From Crocinitomicaceae bacterium (GTDB lineage: Bacteria; Bacteroidota; Bacteroidia; Flavobacteriales_D; Crocinitomicaceae), in NCBI GenBank assembly GCA_031409255.1, contig JANNWW010000074.1, positions 18,042 to 82,041 on the forward strand: a DNA stretch of 64,000 nucleotides, given 5' to 3'. A program made the position numbers and the translations under genes. A model generated the notes under the pieces. That model worked only from the letters and a program-made list of their open reading frames with translations, was not told the DNA's origin and searched no databases. Positions 21,972-30,350 of the stretch are shown here, piece after piece (positions within the stretch are counted from its first letter, which is position 1; each line of letters opens with the position of its first letter).

Positions 21972-24197
21972 ATGAAATTAAAACTCTCCTTATTTTCTGC
22001 TTTTTTCATCTTTTTTGGAGTAAAAGCTCAAGATTTTCAATTATTGAATTCAAATGAAAATGGTTTGGAATTCAAACATTCAACCGAAATCATTCCATTT
22101 CAATTTACAACTATAAATGGAAAACAATATGTTCAATTTTCAAAAACAAATCGATTAAACACAAATGAAGTTGGAGCTCCTGAATTACCAATTTATTCAG
22201 TAAATATTGAATTGCCAGATAACGGAAATCCTACTTTATTGGTAACTTATGGTTCAAATTTTCAAGAATTCACGAATATTCTTGTAGCTCCTTCAAAGGG
22301 AAATTTAAAACGAAATATTGATCCGGCGAATGTTTCTTTTACTTTTAATTCGATTTATGCTCTAAATTCAACATATCCAGCAAGTGGAGCTGAATCTTTT
22401 GAACCATTTGTTTTTCGATCAAGTCGTGGAATGACTATTCAAGTTGCACCTTATCAATACAATCCGGTTACAAAAGTACTTCGTGTTTATACAGATATGA
22501 ATGTAACAGTCAATTTTAATCGAACTGAAAATGGAATCAATGAATTAAAGAAAAAATGGAATGATCCTGTTTCTCAAATTGTTGCAAATGATTTATATTT
22601 AAATCACCAGAATTTAAAATACACAGTTAAAAATGAAGAAGGTGAAATGTTAATTGTTACAACACCAGAATTTGAAGATGAAATAACTTCTTTTGCTAAC
22701 TGGAAAAATCAAAAGGGAATTAAAACTACAGTAGTTAATACTATAACTACTGGTTCAACAGCAGCTGAAATCAAACAATATATCGAAACATTCTATGCAG
22801 CTAATCCGAATACTCTTTACTTAGTTATAGTAGGTGATCATCAACAAATTCCTTCGCATACTTATGGACTTGCTGGTTCAGAACAATTGTGGTCGGATTC
22901 ATATTACGGTCAACTTGCAGGAAGTGATTATTATCCAGAACTTTTTGTTGGTCGTTTTTCCGGTCAAAATTCTTCTGAAATTCTTACGCAAGTTAATCGA
23001 ACATTAGAATACGAAAAAAATCCGCAGGGAGGAAATTGGATGGAAAAAGCGGTTGGAATTGGATCTGACGAAGGAGAAGGTTACGGTAATTTAGGTTTAG
23101 CAGATTGGGACCACATGCGCCAGATGAGAACAAAATTGATGACTTTTGGCTACACAACTGTACATGAACTTTATGATGGAAGTCATGGGGGTGAGGATGC
23201 AACAGGTAATCCAACTCCAGAAATGTTACAAACTGCATTAAACGAGGGTTTAGGATTATGGAATTATTCTGGTCATGGTTGGGGTGATGGAATTTCAACA
23301 TGTAATTTCACAAGTACTGATGCAAATACGGCAACAAACTTTGGAATGTATCCTTTAGTTATTTCTGTGGCGTGTAATAACGGAACATTTACGGATGCAA
23401 CATGCGTTGGCGAAATTTTCATGCAAGCTAATTCTGGGGGAATTAAAGGAGCAATTGGTTTTACAGGTTCAACAATTTTAATGGCTTGGGCTCCTCCAAT
23501 GCAGACACAATGGGAAATGACAAATATTTTGACAGAACAAGACCCAGCAAATCTTAAAAAAACTACTGGTGGATTGTTTTACAACGGTCAAATTTCAATG
23601 ATGACTGATTATCCTAGTGAAACAGGAATTGAAATTATGCAAACTTGGGCCTATTTTGGAGACCCATCTACTTTATTTCGACACAAGCAAACAATGCCTT
23701 TGTCATTCGTTAGTCAAGCTCAAGTTCCAGACGGAACCAACTCTATTTCTGTAACTTCATCTGCGGAAGGCGCAAGAATTGCTGTTTCACAAAATAATGT
23801 TTTACTCGGATATGGTTTTGTTTCGGGCGGAACGGTTACAATCAATTTCACTGCATTAACTACTAATGATCCACTTTTAATTACAGCTACAAAACAAAAT
23901 CATGCTGCAACTCAAATGTCTGTTCAAGTTGGAACTGGTGCTTTGAACTTAAATGAGCAAACAATAGATGTGAGCATGTACCCAAATCCATCTACAGATA
24001 AAATTTACTTTAATGTAAACACAAATGAAAAAGTGAATTTTGAAGTTGTTTCGGCTCTTGGACAGGTAATTAGCTCTTCAGTTGTTGAAGCAAATTCGTG
24101 GACATATTCTGTAAGTGATCTTCCACAAGGGCTTTATTATGTTAGAATTGAACATTCAAACGGAGTTCAAACACGTTCATTCCAAGTTCTTAGATAA
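21972..24197 (+). CDS. Gingipain-like C25 cysteine peptidase (signal peptide, propeptide, catalytic domain, Ig-like domain, T9SS CTD)
   Basis: SDSYYGQLAG.DYYPELFVGRFS, NYSGHG (His), SVACNNG (Cys), YFGDPS, C-terminal MYPNPS CTD. Confidence 0.88.
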   Translation: MKLKLSLFSAFFIFFGVKAQDFQLLNSNENGLEFKHSTEIIPFQFTTINGKQYVQFSKTNRLNTNEVGAPELPIYSVNIELPDNGNPTLLVTYGSNFQEFTNILVAPSKGNLKRNIDPANVSFTFNSIYALNSTYPASGAESFEPFVFRSSRGMTIQVAPYQYNPVTKVLRVYTDMNVTVNFNRTENGINELKKKWNDPVSQIVANDLYLNHQNLKYTVKNEEGEMLIVTTPEFEDEITSFANWKNQKGIKTTVVNTITTGSTAAEIKQYIETFYAANPNTLYLVIVGDHQQIPSHTYGLAGSEQLWSDSYYGQLAGSDYYPELFVGRFSGQNSSEILTQVNRTLEYEKNPQGGNWMEKAVGIGSDEGEGYGNLGLADWDHMRQMRTKLMTFGYTTVHELYDGSHGGEDATGNPTPEMLQTALNEGLGLWNYSGHGWGDGISTCNFTSTDANTATNFGMYPLVISVACNNGTFTDATCVGEIFMQANSGGIKGAIGFTGSTILMAWAPPMQTQWEMTNILTEQDPANLKKTTGGLFYNGQISMMTDYPSETGIEIMQTWAYFGDPSTLFRHKQTMPLSFVSQAQVPDGTNSISVTSSAEGARIAVSQNNVLLGYGFVSGGTVTINFTALTTNDPLLITATKQNHAATQMSVQVGTGALNLNEQTIDVSMYPNPSTDKIYFNVNTNEKVNFEVVSALGQVISSSVVEANSWTYSVSDLPQGLYYVRIEHSNGVQTRSFQVLR

Positions 24198-24203
24198 ATT
24201 TCA

Positions 24204-24539
24204 ATGAAAAGTATTCTTTTACTCTTGTTTTCCACAGTTCTTTTGTTGAGCTGTGGAAACAGTAAAAAAACAACTGAAAATACAGTAATACAAAGTAATA
24301 TTGAAATTGCTGTTGAAATTTTATATGTGGGAGTTGTAGAAATTGATACCATATGTGGACCAATTATTAAAGTGCAAACAGCAACTGAAACCAAATCTTT
24401 TGCCCCCTCTAATTTTGATGAACGTTACAAAAAATCTGGTATGAAAATTCGTTTCGGAACTGAAGATAAATTAGAATTCGCTAAAAAATGTGGGGAACAC
24501 TTTATTGTAAAAGTAACTAGAATGACTCCTTTGAGATAA
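24204..24539 (+). CDS. Hypothetical lipoprotein
   Basis: Lipobox LLLSC after a hydrophobic leader; CG pairs. Confidence 0.7.
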   Translation: MKSILLLLFSTVLLLSCGNSKKTTENTVIQSNIEIAVEILYVGVVEIDTICGPIIKVQTATETKSFAPSNFDERYKKSGMKIRFGTEDKLEFAKKCGEHFIVKVTRMTPLR

Positions 24540-24550
24540 TTTCAAAATTT

Positions 24551-25810
24551 TTACTTCAAAACTTTTCCGCTTAACACTTTTCCATCATCAAAATAGACTT
24601 TGAAAAAATAGACGCCTTTAGCTAAATCAGCAATGTTTGCCGTGAGTTGATTTGTACCTTCTTTGATTGATAGATCATTCGTAGTAAGGAGCGAACTTCC
24701 TGAAATACTATAAATCACTAATTTCGCACTTGTTTTTTTCTTTGAATTAATTTTCACTTGTAAATTTTCATCTGCAACTGAATTAGATATTAACGTGTAA
24801 AGACTACTATTTGCAGAACTCGGGTCGATAGAAATGACATTTGAAAAAGAAAAAGAACCATCGTTATCCTTCATTTTCAAACGATAGAACGTTAATTCAC
24901 TGTGTGAAACATCAGTGTATGAATAGGAACAAGCTTCTGAACCTTGGCAGTTTCCGGGTTTTGAATAGATTCGTTCAAATAGCACTCCGTCTTTTGAACT
25001 TTCTAATTCATAATTTGAAAAATTTGTTTCGTGTTGCGACTTCCATTTAATGAGTGTTCCTGAAGTTTTCTTTTCGGCTTCGAAGGAAAGTAAATCTAAT
25101 GACAAAGGAACTGGGGCAGTAATACGAATATCATCAACTGCAATAGCTGGATCAGTTCCAGAACCGTTGCCATTGTTTCTCCAATGAAAACCTACGCGAA
25201 TGTTGGGGTTGTTATTGAAAGCCGCTGGTAAAGCCAGTGTGTAAGTTGTCCATTGACCTTGACTGTAGCCATTGCACGCACCACAGCAAACACTTGTTAA
25301 GCAATATTGTAAACCAACTGGCCAAGTGGCTCCACCATCTGTGCTTAAGCGCAATTGCCCACGGTCGTCGGCGCAAGCAGCACTTCCAAAGGCAATAAAA
25401 TCAAAAGACAAGGTCAGAGTTGAGTTTCCTGTAGAATTAATTAATGGAGAAACTGCCATTCGAAAAGTAGCATTAGCTGCACCCGTTTCATTAAAACTAG
25501 CCCCTAAGTCGCCACCTCCGCTTGCTCCTGAGCCAATGTGAAGTGTTGCATCACCAATACAAGACGAACCGCAACCAGGAGGAACAATTCCTTCTTCAGC
25601 GCAACTCACATACCAAATGTTTGGGTCGCCACCATCTGCTCCTCCTACATTGTTTTGAACCGTCCAGGAAGCATAACCAGTAGCAGCACAACCAGATGCG
25701 CACCCATTGTTGAAATTTTCAGTATAGATAGTTACTTGAGAAAAAGATAATTGACCGAAAATTAAACTCAAAAAGAGTAAAATAAATTGTACTAGTTTAA
25801 TTTTTTTCAT
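24551..25810 (-). CDS. Cys-rich T9SS type A sorting domain protein
   Basis: Signal peptide, YTENF..AIAVDDI adhesin/MAM-like beta-sandwich, PLSLDLLSF Ig-like segment, LAKGVYF CTD. Confidence 0.8.
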   Translation of the reverse strand: MKKIKLVQFILLFLSLIFGQLSFSQVTIYTENFNNGCASGCAATGYASWTVQNNVGGADGGDPNIWYVSCAEEGIVPPGCGSSCIGDATLHIGSGASGGGDLGASFNETGAANATFRMAVSPLINSTGNSTLTLSFDFIAFGSAACADDRGQLRLSTDGGATWPVGLQYCLTSVCCGACNGYSQGQWTTYTLALPAAFNNNPNIRVGFHWRNNGNGSGTDPAIAVDDIRITAPVPLSLDLLSFEAEKKTSGTLIKWKSQHETNFSNYELESSKDGVLFERIYSKPGNCQGSEACSYSYTDVSHSELTFYRLKMKDNDGSFSFSNVISIDPSSANSSLYTLISNSVADENLQVKINSKKKTSAKLVIYSISGSSLLTTNDLSIKEGTNQLTANIADLAKGVYFFKVYFDDGKVLSGKVLK

Positions 25811-27020
25811 GGCGCAATTTGAATTTTCTATAGTTGAAGTATAAATATACTGAAAATGAAGTAATTAATAAGTAAAAAAGTAAATTTGTTGGAATTCCGA
25901 TTAAAGGAGCCCCAAAGCTCAAAAACCCCATTAATAGAATCGAAACAGTCAAAAGGGCATTAAAAAAAGCTAATAGAAACGGAATTCGATAGAAAAAAAG
26001 TGGAGCTTCATATAGAAAAAACAACAACCCCCAGACAATCATGGAAGCGAAACAAGTGTAAAAACTGACACACGAGCTCGTGAAAAACACAAGAAAAAAC
26101 AGGGCAGTTTGTTTGTGGTAGTTTTTTGTATGAAATTGGTTTGTTTTTCCCAGATTTTCGTAAATCCACAAGAAAATTAGCGTCAAGAAAAGCAATGGAA
26201 AATAATAAATGGTTGTTGGATTAACGGACCAATTTTCGGGATAATTTTTCTGCGCCAAATAGGCTCCAAACGAAAATATACCCAGTCCAAAAAGGAAACG
26301 AATGATAGAAATTAATTTTATTCCGAATGTAATTCTGTGTTTTGAATAACGGTAAATTAAGGTTAAAAACAACAATAAATCGAGTAAATACAATAAGTAA
26401 ATCGAAGATTGATCGTTCGAACCATAATTTAAACCCAATGCGGTGTTCAATTTTCCTAAGAAAAAAGGAATTGCGCCAGATAGAAACAGAACAGTATAAA
26501 TAGAAATGGTTCCAATAAGGGAACGCATTAGAGATTGAGTTTTCGTAAAAATGTAGTTGAAACTCGCAAAAACAAGCAAAATAATTTCAATACGAATTCC
26601 TAAAGTTGCTCCTCTGCTGAGGCTTGCCCCACCAATTGTTATGTATGACCAAAGTAGGTCTGAAAAAGAGTTTATTGCCAAATAATTCATTTTTGAAAGC
26701 TTGCCTTGCGAAACAATCATATCAATTATTGGTGCAGTTAAAGCAATTGAAAAACAGCAAACAACCAACCGAATAATTTTTGCTACTTTTTCTTTCGAGT
26801 AAAAATGAAGTTGCACCATAAATGCTCCAACGATGAAAATAAACCACAAACCAATATGTAAAACATCTTCACTTTTAAACAAACGTTGATTCGAGAAAAA
26901 TTCTAAGCACAAACGAACACTTAAAATTGCTAGAAACAAGAAAAGATAACGGTGCAATGGAATGTCGACACCCTCAATTTTGTTTACTATATGTTGAAAC
27001 ACGCGATTGAACTTTTTCAT
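25797..27020 (-). CDS. Polytopic membrane protein with degenerate UbiA-like C-terminal half
   Basis: About 10 or more TM segments. LYEAPLFFYRIPFLL..MGFLSFG parallels IYSCKPFRFKRFV..AGFSSAG of the neighbouring UbiA. Confidence 0.6.
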   Translation of the reverse strand: MKKFNRVFQHIVNKIEGVDIPLHRYLFLFLAILSVRLCLEFFSNQRLFKSEDVLHIGLWFIFIVGAFMVQLHFYSKEKVAKIIRLVVCCFSIALTAPIIDMIVSQGKLSKMNYLAINSFSDLLWSYITIGGASLSRGATLGIRIEIILLVFASFNYIFTKTQSLMRSLIGTISIYTVLFLSGAIPFFLGKLNTALGLNYGSNDQSSIYLLYLLDLLLFLTLIYRYSKHRITFGIKLISIIRFLFGLGIFSFGAYLAQKNYPENWSVNPTTIYYFPLLFLTLIFLWIYENLGKTNQFHTKNYHKQTALFFLVFFTSSCVSFYTCFASMIVWGLLFFLYEAPLFFYRIPFLLAFFNALLTVSILLMGFLSFGAPLIGIPTNLLFYLLITSFSVYLYFNYRKFKLRHEKN

Positions 27021-27021
27021 G

Positions 27022-27888
27022 TTATAATTGATAAATCAGGTAATTCCCGATCACTTCAAGCTGCTTGTTTCGTATGTCGTTCGTTTGAATCAGGTATGGT
27101 TCAGAAAATGTTTCAGATTTTAAATTAATTGAAAATGTTGAACTTTCATTAACGGAAAATTCAATAAATTGATTTTCAAAAACGTATTCTCCATTGAAAT
27201 CAGAATACAAAACTTCGTAACTTCCGTTTGGTAAAACTTTACAATAAAAGCAATACCGCAAAGATGGAAACAAATTCAATTCAATAAAACAAAAATGGGA
27301 GTTGGGTTCTCTGTTGAATAAATAATCTGGTTGATCTAAAATTCGTAAGCTAAAAAAAGTTTCTACTTGAGAGTTCTTCGTTTTTAAATTAGCAGAAAAG
27401 GGTTCAAAATTCAAAAGAAATTGATTGGAGTCGATTAAACTAAACTTTCTTTTTTCAAAACTTAGGCTGTAAAATTCGGGTGTTTTGGTTTTCACTTCTC
27501 GAGCTTTAAATTCTATCGATTCCCGTTCAAGCTGGAAAGTGAAATTTTCTACATCTTTACCATCTGAAAAAAACAACGGAAATCTGACTCTACCAAAATC
27601 TGCTAATGAATCTACAAAAAAGTGGTCTTTTGAAATAACTTCATGATTCATTTTGTTGAATTGTGTGAATGCATTGAGCTGAAACCGGTTGTTCTTTTTA
27701 GAAGTTAAAATAATTGTGCTCAAGTATTGTGCGTCTTCTTGTGCAAATTGTATTGGTAAAGCAGTAAGTATATAAATCTTCTGTTCGCTTAAGGAGTAAT
27801 TGAATTCTTTTTCTGAATTCAATAATCGATTCGTAGTGCAAGCGCCAAAGAGAATTAAAGCGAAAAGTGATAAAAGTAACTTACTCAT
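27022..27888 (-). CDS. Hypothetical lipoprotein
   Basis: Lipobox LFGAC at residue 17; no recognised domain. Confidence 0.7.
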   Translation of the reverse strand: MSKLLLSLFALILFGACTTNRLLNSEKEFNYSLSEQKIYILTALPIQFAQEDAQYLSTIILTSKKNNRFQLNAFTQFNKMNHEVISKDHFFVDSLADFGRVRFPLFFSDGKDVENFTFQLERESIEFKAREVKTKTPEFYSLSFEKRKFSLIDSNQFLLNFEPFSANLKTKNSQVETFFSLRILDQPDYLFNREPNSHFCFIELNLFPSLRYCFYCKVLPNGSYEVLYSDFNGEYVFENQFIEFSVNESSTFSINLKSETFSEPYLIQTNDIRNKQLEVIGNYLIYQL

Positions 27889-28891
27889 TTCTAATTAGAC
27901 TTTGATACAATTTTAAGTCCTCAACAATAAGTGAAGTAGCAACTAGGTATTCTTTTTTCTTGTAGCGTTGATTTGGAATTGGGAAGAATCCGCCGTTCCA
28001 TCCGCCATTAGTTAATTGTTGCCCGATTAAAAATTGAATGCCTTTTTCAATATTTTTACGGTTTTCTTTGCGATTTATCTTCAACAATGCATTTAAAACA
28101 AAAGCAGTTTCTAATTCAATTGAAATACAATTCTTTGAACGGTCTTGCTGAAAATTCCAAGCGCCATTTGCAAGTTGTTGACCTATAATCCAGCTAATTA
28201 AACTGTCACACAAAGTTCTGTTTTTTTCCTCACGAGCTAATGCAGGAAGCGCCTGCCAAAGTGTGTATGACTCGCTTCCATAGTATTCCCAAGAACTTCC
28301 CCAAAGTTGATTAGGTATTAATTTTGAAATCAAAAATGCGCTGGCTTTTTCAGTATTCAAATTTAGATCAGTTTGTTGAGTTGAAAAATTCAACACAAAA
28401 GCAGTAACCGAAGGATAGTTGAAATCGAATTGAACATCCGGATTTTGAACTTTCCAAGAACCGTCTTCCTCCTGAAGTTTTTCCAAATATAGCATTTCAT
28501 TAGTGAATTGAAAAGTTGGGTCAATTTTTCTTTTTAAATCCAAATAAAGCATTGAAGTTTCAACACAAAAATCAGTAATGCATTTTTCATTGTGGCAAAT
28601 TAGCCCAGAACTATGTTCGTTCGAACTTAACCAGTTTAGGGCTTTTTGTATATTAATATTTGTTTGAATTGCAGATTCATTTACGACCAAAGCTTTTGTG
28701 CAAATAATGGTTTCCCATACATTAAACATATGGTCAGTAGAATCTTGAAAACTGCCAGATTCTTTTTGTTGAGAAAGTAAAAAAGTAACTCCTCTACTTA
28801 AGGATTGGTTCAGTTTATCCGATTTAATTTGCGCCACACTTAATTTAGGAGCAAAACAAAAAAAGACACAAATAGTAAGTAGATTTTTCAA
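27881..28891 (-). CDS. Exported prenyltransferase/squalene-cyclase repeat (alpha-toroid) protein
   Basis: QW-like repeats LLSQQKESGSF, EKLQEEDGSW, IIGQQLANGAW, LIGQQLTNGGW; N-terminal signal peptide. Confidence 0.75.
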   Translation of the reverse strand: MKNLLTICVFFCFAPKLSVAQIKSDKLNQSLSRGVTFLLSQQKESGSFQDSTDHMFNVWETIICTKALVVNESAIQTNINIQKALNWLSSNEHSSGLICHNEKCITDFCVETSMLYLDLKRKIDPTFQFTNEMLYLEKLQEEDGSWKVQNPDVQFDFNYPSVTAFVLNFSTQQTDLNLNTEKASAFLISKLIPNQLWGSSWEYYGSESYTLWQALPALAREEKNRTLCDSLISWIIGQQLANGAWNFQQDRSKNCISIELETAFVLNALLKINRKENRKNIEKGIQFLIGQQLTNGGWNGGFFPIPNQRYKKKEYLVATSLIVEDLKLYQSLIRNE

Positions 28892-28895
28892 TTTC

Positions 28896-29816
28896 TTATT
28901 TTGAAATTAAAAGTAATGCAATCAATCCTAAAAACAAGAAATTATGCAAATAAAATAGTGGTTTTTCGTTATAAGGTTTGCGAAGTAATAGGAACAAATG
29001 AAAAATGGAACTTGGAATTAAGAGTCCTAAAAACCAATAATAATTGAAATAGAAATAAACAGAAATGTAACAAGAAAGAATGCATAGACTTATAAATTGA
29101 AATGCTTTTTTTTCTCCGAAAATTACTGGAATTGTTCTAATACCTGCTTTTCCATCACCTTCAACATCTTTTAAATCGATAAAATTTGCCAATAATGCAA
29201 TTGGAACCAAAATGAATATTGTCCAAAAAAGCGGAAAATCGAGAATATTTCCTCCAGCACTACTGAACCCCGCCAAAGCGCAAACGAAGGTGTTTATTCC
29301 AATCAAAAATTTTGCAAAAATCACGAAGCGTTTGAAGCGAAACGGTTTGCAGGAATAAATAAAATAAATTGCTGAAAGTCCGATAACACACATGAAATAA
29401 GGCAGCCCTAAAACTGCCGACAAAACCAATGCGAGAAGCAAGCTTGTGTAAGAAATGACACGGTATTGTTTAATCGGAATGCTTTCTCGTACGAGTGGCC
29501 TGTTGGAATTAGATATTTTATCAATTTCTAAATCTGCTTCATTGTTAGAGGCAATCGCAAAAACTGCAGCATAACTTAAGCAGAAGAAAAAAGCGAGTAT
29601 TTTAAAAATTAATTCCCAACTAATTTCTAATGGAATAGCTGTTTCTTTAAAGAAAAGAACAAAGCCAAAAAGGAACAATATAAAATAATGAAGAATACGC
29701 TCAATTCGTATGTCTTTAAGAAGTTCAATGCTAAGTTTGAAACGAATCGCCAGGCAAAAAACAACTGGAATTACTGAACAAACAAAGAGAAGAATATTTT
29801 TTTCAAGTCCACTCAT
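28896..29816 (-). CDS. UbiA family prenyltransferase
   Basis: Asp-rich motifs NNEADLEIDKISNSNRPL and IDLKDVEGDGKAGIRTIP; multiple TM helices. Confidence 0.88.
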   Translation of the reverse strand: MSGLEKNILLFVCSVIPVVFCLAIRFKLSIELLKDIRIERILHYFILFLFGFVLFFKETAIPLEISWELIFKILAFFFCLSYAAVFAIASNNEADLEIDKISNSNRPLVRESIPIKQYRVISYTSLLLALVLSAVLGLPYFMCVIGLSAIYFIYSCKPFRFKRFVIFAKFLIGINTFVCALAGFSSAGGNILDFPLFWTIFILVPIALLANFIDLKDVEGDGKAGIRTIPVIFGEKKAFQFISLCILSCYISVYFYFNYYWFLGLLIPSSIFHLFLLLRKPYNEKPLFYLHNFLFLGLIALLLISK

Positions 29817-29846
29817 TCTTTAATTACATCTGAGTTGCTCGAATGT

Positions 29847-30284
29847 TTAGGTAATTTTCCCATCGGGAAGCATTTTAATAAAATGAAAACCTTTTGGCGC
29901 AAATCCTTGATTGTAATAAAAACGATGAGCGTTGAAATTGTTAACGTATGCATCTAAAACTAAAATATTACAATCTGCAGCTTTTGCTTTTTCTTCTAGG
30001 TAGTTTTGCATCATTTTACCGGCTCCAGTTCCTCTTTTAGATTCTGAAACAATCACATTGTCGAGTTCTAAGTATTTTCCACACCACAATTTCGTGCTCA
30101 TCCAATAACCAGCAACTGCTAAGCAAGTTGTGCCATCAAAAACTGCAACCTGACCATAGTTATGCCCTAACATATTGTCTAACATTTCTGCGTAATACTC
30201 TAAATTAAGTGCTGGATATAACTCGCGCATAAGTTCAATTTGTTCCAACATTTTGCTTTTGCTTTTTAACTCGCGAATTTCCAT
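29847..30284 (-). CDS. GNAT family N-acetyltransferase
   Basis: LELDNVIVSESKRGTGAG, AHRFYYNQGF. Confidence 0.88.
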   Translation of the reverse strand: MEIRELKSKSKMLEQIELMRELYPALNLEYYAEMLDNMLGHNYGQVAVFDGTTCLAVAGYWMSTKLWCGKYLELDNVIVSESKRGTGAGKMMQNYLEEKAKAADCNILVLDAYVNNFNAHRFYYNQGFAPKGFHFIKMLPDGKIT

Positions 30285-30308: not shown

Positions 30309-30350
30309 CAAAGTATTTTAAATCACTCGCATTCTTCTACTTAAATTAGC

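Follow-up and report, generated by a model that had tools for sequence, protein, structure and literature searches.

A five-gene cassette, g2 to g6, lies on the minus strand of a 64,000-nucleotide stretch of DNA from a Crocinitomicaceae bacterium (NCBI GenBank assembly GCA_031409255.1, contig JANNWW010000074.1, positions 18,042 to 82,041), which we refer to as the window. As a module the cassette is both real and rare; it is conserved across phyla and is inherited as one unit. It encodes an intact UbiA-superfamily prenyltransferase (g2), an exported toroid related to squalene-hopene cyclase (SHC) (g3), an exported lipoprotein (g4), a polytopic membrane protein that is a pseudo-UbiA (g5) and a surface protein displayed by the type IX secretion system (T9SS) (g6). 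Our favoured reading, which we hold tentatively, is that these proteins make up a conserved isoprenoid-lipid module that spans the cell envelope.

The gene order g2-g3-(g4)-g5-g6 was kept in all 20 of the related loci that we fetched, which came from Fluviicola, Ferruginibacter, Chitinophagaceae and other Bacteroidia metagenome-assembled genomes (MAGs); most carriers are MAGs. We also searched 40 relatives, made up of 24 congeners (Fluviicola genomes) and 16 genomes from other families of the order. Nine of the congeners and none of the 16 others carried g3, and g3, g5 and a cassette-type g6 occurred in the identical set of nine genomes, all three being absent from the remaining 31. Cassette-type g6 heads among these relatives were 68-81% identical, whereas unrelated paralogous heads did not exceed 46%, leaving a clean gap between the two. 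A gene order without exception in 20 loci, together with a distribution over the 40 relatives that is identical for g3, g5 and g6, places the arrangement far beyond chance. Since an even sample of 400 Bacteroidota genomes held no further genome with a cassette-type head, the module is rare. An earlier note on this DNA had described a six-gene unit that began with a GNAT acetyltransferase gene. Genes g2-g6 are indeed co-conserved in 20 of 20 loci, but none of these loci has a GNAT homologue, so that the conserved unit consists of five genes with a four-gene core, not six, and GNAT is ruled out as a member of the module.

That four-gene core, comprising UbiA, the toroid, a g5-like protein and the g6 head, also occurs outside Bacteroidota at two loci (L051 and L052), from which the lipocalin/g4 is absent and in which the head carries CLIPPER/DUF11 or TSP_3 stalks in place of the T9SS domain; isopeptide bonds are a feature of CLIPPER, a domain of surface stalks (10.1101/2025.04.25.650565). 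In the genome of Ahniella sp. (Gammaproteobacteria), the UbiA, toroid and g5 genes share a single contig and the head gene lies on another. At the non-Bacteroidota loci the head remains ~66-69% identical, compared with 31-42% for g2, g3 and g5. No TonB-dependent or other outer-membrane transporter is conserved alongside the cassette in the related loci.

The UbiA-related proteins g2 and g5

The Pfam UbiA model PF01040 matches g2 with 114.1 bits against a cut-off of 34.2, and both of the Asp-rich motifs that mark the superfamily are intact, as NNEADLEID and DLKDVEGD, which fit NxxxDxxxD and DxxDxxxD. However, no NCBIfam UbiA equivalog gives g2 a score above its cut-off: the housekeeping models (MenA, UbiA/4-hydroxybenzoate, CyoE/CtaB and MqnP) gave 17-38 bits against cut-offs of 210-555, and the best model, PRK12884 of the digeranylgeranylglyceryl phosphate (DGGGP) synthase type, gave 73.5 bits against 269. 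The genome encodes, on other contigs, a MenA that adjoins MenC and a heme O synthase and, also away from the cassette, a DGGGP synthase-like paralog, so g2 is its fourth UbiA enzyme. In our tree the housekeeping paralogs (MenA, CyoE and the DGGGP synthase-like protein) sit on very long branches and g2 clusters with a family of ~510-residue proteins, with the UbiA half of which it aligns over its full length. By these sequence measures g2 is an intact, catalytic-type UbiA prenyltransferase of a non-housekeeping kind, as the earlier note had proposed.

The closest solved structure to g2 is the DGGGP synthase of M. jannaschii (6m31, 1.5e-12), an archaeal ether-lipid enzyme with which it has the second Asp-rich motif in common (KDVEGD in g2). 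In contrast to such enzymes, g2 scores 45-73 bits against DGGGP synthase-type cut-offs of 269-353, no geranylgeranylglyceryl phosphate synthase gene adjoins it and the genome has a closer DGGGP synthase-like paralog; assignment of g2 as a DGGGP synthase was rejected on the PRK12884 cut-off. The gene of that paralog (L002, G000:C173) runs in the same direction as a PorE-like OmpA-family T9SS gene, whose 3' end it overlaps.

The protein g5 has no Pfam or NCBIfam match and its profile found none in the PDB, yet the 'UbiA-like membrane protein' of the earlier note is borne out by alignment and by fold. It consists of an N-terminal domain of six transmembrane (TM) helices, at about residues 1-225, and a truncated UbiA half at about 236-407. 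When aligned with the ~510-residue family (alignment A3), g5 matches the N-terminal domain and the first UbiA helices, but a deletion has removed the first Asp motif (NNIxDxxIDKISNxxRPL) and the protein stops ahead of the second (NFIDxKDxxGD). Foldseek searches with its AlphaFold2 model (predicted local distance difference test (pLDDT) 94.9) matched the C-terminal half only, to the UbiA homologue of A. fulgidus (4tq3-4tq6; probability 0.9-1.0), over ~170-187 aligned columns that represent a partial UbiA fold; the N-terminal domain (hereafter N-domain) had no fold match in the PDB. Lacking both Asp motifs and the full nine-TM fold, g5 stands outside the UbiA superfamily proper and, as judged from the alignment, is a catalytically dead pseudo-UbiA remnant joined to an undescribed membrane domain of ~220 residues. 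In one Bacteroidia MAG the g5 orthologue is split into two open reading frames (ORFs) (L027 11275-12790), and in another genome it contains an in-frame TGA (L023/L048, G016:C70); these cases are due either to faulty assembly or to a pseudo-enzyme gene that is decaying in some of its carriers.

At E<=0.001, a search of 1.84 billion representatives with a profile built from g5 orthologues retrieved 829 proteins (cluster representatives), most of them ~500-530 residues long and matched over their first ~400 residues. Among 93 aligned members, 64 have a Pfam UbiA match in the C-terminal half, whereas the first ~220 residues belong to no family, the N-domain having no Pfam or NCBIfam match in any of the 93. 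Within that domain R36, D100, Y113, G141 and Y175 never vary in these members and E40, H55 and E145 hardly do; from the known orientation of UbiA enzymes, R36, E40, H55, D100 and E145 are predicted to lie at the periplasmic ends of TM1-4, beside a conserved outer loop of 35 residues. The named sources of the single-chain proteins are Nano-, Woese- and Aenigmatarchaeota, Thermoplasmata, Patescibacteria, Omnitrophica and Aminicenantes. In the loci examined these proteins have no consistent gene neighbours, with neither g3 nor g6 close by in DPANN archaea and Patescibacteria.

In the tree, g2 orthologues (support 89/98) and g5 halves (99/99) form separate clades within the ~510-residue family, whose branching is unresolved, so that the tree does not settle whether the two are sisters. 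The alignments and the tree indicate that g2 and g5 both derive from this single-chain family of N-domain plus UbiA. The simplest history would be that a single-chain enzyme was duplicated, after which one copy shed its N-domain to become g2 and the other shed catalysis to become g5. Such a split-enzyme history in turn suggests that g2 and g5 form a heteromer.

Two loci of the single-chain family have neighbours worth recording. On a JGI metagenome contig (L057), two full-length ~510-residue paralogs stand in tandem, with a Caroten_synth (PF04240) gene ~3 kb upstream of the pair and a polyprenyl synthase gene ~5 kb downstream; these neighbours may hint at the ancestral substrate. On an ENA contig (L029), a 519-residue member directly follows a FAD_binding_4 (PF01565) gene, an arrangement that recalls, by analogy, a prenyl-phosphate-sugar oxidase paired with a UbiA-type transferase.

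The exported proteins g3, g4 and g6

As the earlier note had supposed, the later components of the cassette are extracytoplasmic, given the signal peptide of g3, the lipobox of g4 and the T9SS domain of g6. The Pfam model SQHop_cyclase_C matches g3 with 43.3 bits against a cut-off of 26.1, with weaker matches to TED and Prenyltrans, and g3 has the (alpha/alpha)6 barrel and QW repeats of the SHC superfamily. Its profile finds SHC (1.3e-19), MstE (2.3e-5) and other class II cyclases in the PDB, through the QW-repeat half only, and its TIGR01787 score is 61 bits against a cut-off of 322. A class II cyclase would be expected to be cytoplasmic or membrane-monotopic and to have no secretion signal; in contrast, g3 has a signal peptide that ends SVA/Q, and N-terminal signals can be read from the sequences of both Bacteroidota and non-Bacteroidota orthologues. 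None of the acid motifs DxDD, DxD and DCTAE occurs in g3 or in its 12+9 orthologues, which have an invariant CHNxxCxxxxCxET instead. The residues invariant across phyla are D50, W59, E60, C99, H100, N101, C104, C109, E111, T112, W201, E202, Y204, K312 and E314. Against the oxidosqualene cyclase (OSC) of a congener, with its motif VTDCTSE, MAFFT sets a 19-residue deletion over the OSC acid, whereas a gap-free reading places E111 15 residues from a conserved Gly, the same spacing as that of the acid Asp. The alignment is therefore ambiguous between a Glu substitution and a deletion of the acid loop and, as a 138-residue piece of g3 also had no PDB match, we do not claim E111 as a class II acid. 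This OSC-type protein of ~670-750 residues (L015, G018:C20) is present in ~10 congeners, where it was seen as weak g3 matches to ORFs of 743-753 residues, and is apparently absent from the window's own genome, which suggests that carriage of a sterol-type cyclase is patchy in the genus Fluviicola.

It is in this light that we weigh the proposal that g3, with Glu111 as a non-canonical acid, is a true periplasmic class II-type cyclase of the g2 product, whose prenyl chain it would cyclise in the manner of MstE. The superfamily match, the spacing of E111 in the gap-free reading and invariant aromatic and acidic residues that would suit a carbocation-stabilising pocket are all consistent with it, as is a lipocalin partner related to CrtC, an enzyme that protonates the terminal isoprene double bond. 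Given that all three acid motifs are missing, that MAFFT deletes the very segment that holds the OSC acid, that the structural matches come through the QW repeats only, that the TIGR01787 score is so far below its cut-off and that we know of no exported class II cyclase, we consider this proposal unlikely. The terpene-cyclase-like chemistry of the earlier note fares accordingly: g3 lacks the class II general acid found in MstE and, because the acid motifs are absent and the OSC alignment is ambiguous, cyclisation is conjecture. The merosterolic acid pathway of Scytonema does have a UbiA gene adjoining a single-domain SHC-superfamily barrel of ~340 residues (MstE, PDB 6sbb). However, the acid motif of MstE is DxD (PMC12414744), which g3 lacks, g3 is exported and the pathway has no counterpart of the pseudo-UbiA/N-domain protein, the lipocalin or the surface protein. 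The cassette, moreover, has no aromatic-acceptor genes, and for that reason the 'meroterpenoid' of the earlier note is unsupported.

The lipoprotein g4 evolves fast. It has no Pfam match itself at E<=0.1, neither to PF07143 nor to PF17186 of the CrtC/AttH lipocalin family, and its profile found none in the PDB, but three of its 13 positional orthologues match PF17186 (Lipocalin_9; best 6.4e-11), a shared C-terminal motif is seen in alignment A5 and the lipobox Cys is invariant in the 13. We read g4 as a positional orthologue of Lipocalin_9 lipoproteins of the CrtC/AttH type, an accessory part found in Bacteroidota. The lipocalin is tied to the UbiA enzyme because a marine protein of ~800 residues (P0157) fuses the N-domain, UbiA, CrtC_N and Lipocalin_9 in a single chain. 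From UbiA topology the C-terminus of the enzyme should be extracytoplasmic, which would fit both a C-terminal lipocalin fusion and the lipoprotein status of g4. The coupling of a UbiA enzyme to a CrtC-type lipocalin, in P0157 and through PF17186 at the g4 position, resembles the C50-carotenoid end-group chemistry of LyeJ/CrtEb with CruF/CrtC. In contrast to that chemistry, the cassette has no crtB or crtI, its lipocalin is a periplasmic lipoprotein and the family extends to DPANN archaea and Patescibacteria; the link is one of domain kinship only.

The surface protein g6 has a signal peptide, a Cys-rich jelly-roll head, a middle domain resembling an immunoglobulin (Ig) fold and a type A C-terminal sorting domain that identifies it as T9SS cargo (TIGR04183, 30.7 bits against 23; PF18962, 28 against 27). 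Its head has ten invariant Cys and an Asp-box (STDGGATW), and the best 120 database matches to it, among them the Ahniella sequence, all show at least 71% identity; identity of the enzymes across phyla is 30-45%. The profile of g6 found no match in the PDB. With an AlphaFold2 model (pLDDT 77.5), Foldseek returned the gingipain cleaved-adhesin domain, the Eph ligand-binding domain, MAM and several carbohydrate-binding module (CBM) jelly rolls at probability 1.0 and TM-score 0.5-0.6, a similarity at the level of the fold only; the head is not a member of the cleaved-adhesin, MAM or Reelin sequence families (Reelin_subrepeat-B, 18.5 bits against 27). More distant paralogous heads (at most 46% identical) cap SprB/PKD/CHU_C and HYR surface proteins, and the g6 head belongs to this wider family of surface-protein tips. 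The window's own genome has a second head of this kind (G000:C200:7753-8340; L053 1274-4108), 40% identical to that of g6, at the tip of a 944-residue SprB-repeat/PKD/CHU_C protein of T9SS type B. An upstream 'paralog' of g6 at two loci (L045 and L049) has only the Ig-like and C-terminal sorting parts in common with it.

The locus and its flanks

The six ORFs of the region (Table 1) are separated by gaps or overlaps of 30, 4, -8, 1 and -14 bp, in exact agreement with the earlier note. Its domain calls (GNAT, UbiA, QW-repeat, lipoprotein and Cys-rich T9SS cargo) are likewise in accord with the Pfam and NCBIfam scores and with the lipobox Cys.

Table 1. The cassette, the adjoining GNAT gene and smaller features, in window coordinates
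Feature	Position	Strand	Basis
GNAT acetyltransferase, 145 aa	29847..30284	-	PF00583, 2.7e-13
g2, UbiA-superfamily prenyltransferase, 306 aa	28896..29816	-	PF01040, 8.9e-33
g3, exported (alpha/alpha)6 toroid with QW repeats, 336 aa	27881..28891	-	SQHop_cyclase_C, 3.2e-11
g4, lipoprotein, 288 aa	27022..27888	-	Lipobox Cys; no Pfam match for g4 itself
g5, polytopic membrane protein, 407 aa	25797..27020	-	Alignment and fold; no Pfam/NCBIfam match
g6, T9SS-secreted surface protein, 419 aa	24551..25810	-	Por_Secre_tail and TIGR04183 above cut-offs
g6 jelly-roll head	nt 25115-25738, residues 25-232	-	Cys-rich
Possible Bacteroidota -7 element, TACTTTG	30309..30315	-	Fits TAnnTTTG; 25 nt upstream of GNAT start codon; read directly; low confidence

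The flanks hold rpoC and a C25 peptidase gene on one side and OsmC and SpoU methylase genes on the other. As the earlier note had stated, no quinone or heme genes adjoin the region, and none for carotenoids was seen in its neighbourhood in the window. The possible -7 element fits TAnnTTTG, which we take to be the Bacteroidetes promoter consensus. A scan for sigma-70-type promoters gave 22 sites compared with 21.1 in shuffled sequence, no excess, and terminator-like sites were no commoner than in shuffled sequence, none being found in the 30-bp gap between GNAT and g2. GNAT is probably co-transcribed with the cassette at this locus. Between rpoC and g6 (21972-24539) lie the gene of the C25 (gingipain-type) peptidase, which carries a T9SS C-terminal domain, and an ORF of 111 residues. 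This region looks like a local insertion because rpoC is close to g6 in congener loci (~100-300 bp in L019, L021 and L022, 1.8 kb in L018), in all four of which tblastn found no C25 homologue.

Possible function of the cassette and its wider meaning

We propose the following model for an envelope-spanning isoprenoid-lipid module. At the inner membrane, g2 and g5 would act as a heteromer, in which g2 would move a prenyl chain from a prenyl diphosphate to an acceptor at the cytoplasmic face, and the N-domain of g5, with its predicted periplasmic polar residues, might display the lipid at the outer face or process it further there. In the periplasm g3 and, where present, g4, exported proteins whose sequences point to folds of lipid-handling type, would bind the prenyl chain and might protonate, cyclise or hydrate it, cyclisation by g3 being possible there. 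Finally, the jelly-roll head of g6 on the cell surface would come last, partnering the product as carrier, receptor or user. In favour of this model we count the gene order in 20 of 20 loci, the shared presence in 9 of 40 relatives, the core that persists with other anchors and the domain fusions, as well as the Asp motifs intact in g2 and lost in g5, the UbiA fold of g5, the export signals and the housekeeping UbiA enzymes encoded elsewhere in the genome. Several points weigh against it. The cassette contains no polyprenyl synthase or acceptor-biosynthesis gene and offers no candidate for the product, acceptor or donor; g3 may only bind, since the class II acid motif is absent; g4 is dispensable in some lineages (L051, L052); and we only infer the contacts between g2 and g5 and between the lipid and g6. 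In addition, the slow evolution of the g6 head is explained by none of the readings offered here, a simple carrier role included.

The ebo operon is, like the cassette, centred on a UbiA enzyme. In the thallusin pathway its UbiA-like enzyme EboC attaches a farnesyl group to a quinoline, and no cyclase has been assigned to the cyclisation step (10.64898/2026.05.21.724671). However, no eboA, B, D, E or F adjoins the cassette, genes of these types (TatD-like, DHQS-like, xylose-isomerase-like and alkaline-phosphatase-family) being absent within ~5 kb of it, the EboC model is not among the NCBIfam matches of g2, and g5 and g6 are peculiar to the cassette. Thus, each of the nearest analogues, MstE, ebo/EboC, DGGGP synthase and UbiA/CrtC carotenoid chemistry, has a defining feature that the cassette lacks. 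A full-text search of the literature for its combination of genes found no description, and the suggestion of the earlier note that this is an undescribed system holds in that no matching described pathway was found. Four things go beyond that note: the descent of g2 and g5 from a split enzyme, the undescribed membrane domain of g5, the link to lipocalins and the extreme conservation of the g6 head.

We weighed two further proposals. In the first, the cassette is a protein-lipidation machine with g6 as its substrate: g2 and g5 would make or present a prenyl-lipid donor, and the g5 N-domain and g3 would attach the lipid covalently to the head before display. The head is the invariant partner whatever its anchor, it co-occurs perfectly with g3 and g5, and identity of ~66-69%, as against 31-42% for the enzymes, would be expected of a substrate that is recognised several times over. 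The CHNxxCxxxxC cluster of g3 is reminiscent of the zinc sites of protein prenyltransferase beta-subunits and LanC, g3 has its weak Prenyltrans match and the conserved polar residues of the g5 N-domain are predicted to face the periplasm. However, the even number of invariant Cys in the head suggests five disulfides and no free thiol, the single-chain relatives lack a neighbouring g3 or g6 in DPANN archaea and Patescibacteria, a prenyl-diphosphate donor is not available in the periplasm and, to our knowledge, there is no case of UbiA-dependent or extracytoplasmic protein prenylation. On balance we find this proposal quite improbable. A bolder form of it, to which we give less credence still, would make the cassette the first extracytoplasmic protein-prenylation or prenyl-lipid anchoring machine, in which the split UbiA supplies the lipid, the g5 N-domain and g3 transfer it to g6 and the single-chain ~510-residue proteins of DPANN archaea and Patescibacteria are the ancestral, self-contained form. 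Lgt and the archaeal AliA-type lipid transferases, polytopic enzymes that modify exported proteins at the outer face with a membrane lipid as donor (PMC12462473), show how such a machine could work; the parallel is one of working principle, no kinship in sequence or fold having been found or tested for, AliA being arCOG02177 and not a UbiA protein, and the g6 head has no lipobox.

In the second, the flow runs from outside to inside: g6 would capture a hydrophobic or aromatic compound from outside the cell, which g4 and g3 would ferry across the periplasm for g5 and g2 to re-prenylate or remodel in the inner membrane. The modelled fold of the head is of the adhesin/CBM/MAM ligand-binding type, its paralogs sit on adhesin-like SprB/PKD proteins, the cassette contains no acceptor-biosynthesis genes and most named sources of the single-chain relatives are DPANN archaea and Patescibacteria, which scavenge the lipids of their hosts. 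Given that no outer-membrane transporter, TonB-dependent or other, is conserved with the cassette, that the extreme conservation of the head speaks against a variable environmental ligand and that the direction of flow is pure inference, capture and salvage of this kind also seems to us rather doubtful. Finally, an ordinary housekeeping UbiA for quinone, heme O or ether lipid among unrelated neighbours, as the JGI autoannotation of homologues as '4-hydroxybenzoate polyprenyltransferase' would have it, is effectively refuted by the sub-threshold NCBIfam scores of g2, by the genome's own MenA, heme O synthase and DGGGP synthase-like paralogs, distant in the tree, and by strictly co-conserved neighbours in a cassette that only 9 of 24 congeners carry; the housekeeping clade and unconserved neighbours that the earlier note had set against its own proposal are thus the opposite of what we found.

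Quinones, hemes, chlorophylls, archaeal lipids and meroterpenoids are all products of UbiA enzymes. In the cassette, such an enzyme is consistently partnered by a pseudo-enzyme, a new membrane domain and three exported proteins, and no role in isoprenoid chemistry is known for any of these. If our reading of an envelope-spanning isoprenoid-lipid module is true, the cassette would make or handle a lipid, or a conjugate of lipid and protein, that has yet to be described from the envelope of freshwater and sludge Bacteroidota and of some Proteobacteria, and would provide the first functional handle on a large, unannotated UbiA subfamily of 829 cluster representatives. It would also offer two test cases: whether an SHC-fold protein that lacks the canonical acid and works outside the cytoplasm is a catalyst or a carrier, and why the head of a surface protein stays ~70% identical across phyla.

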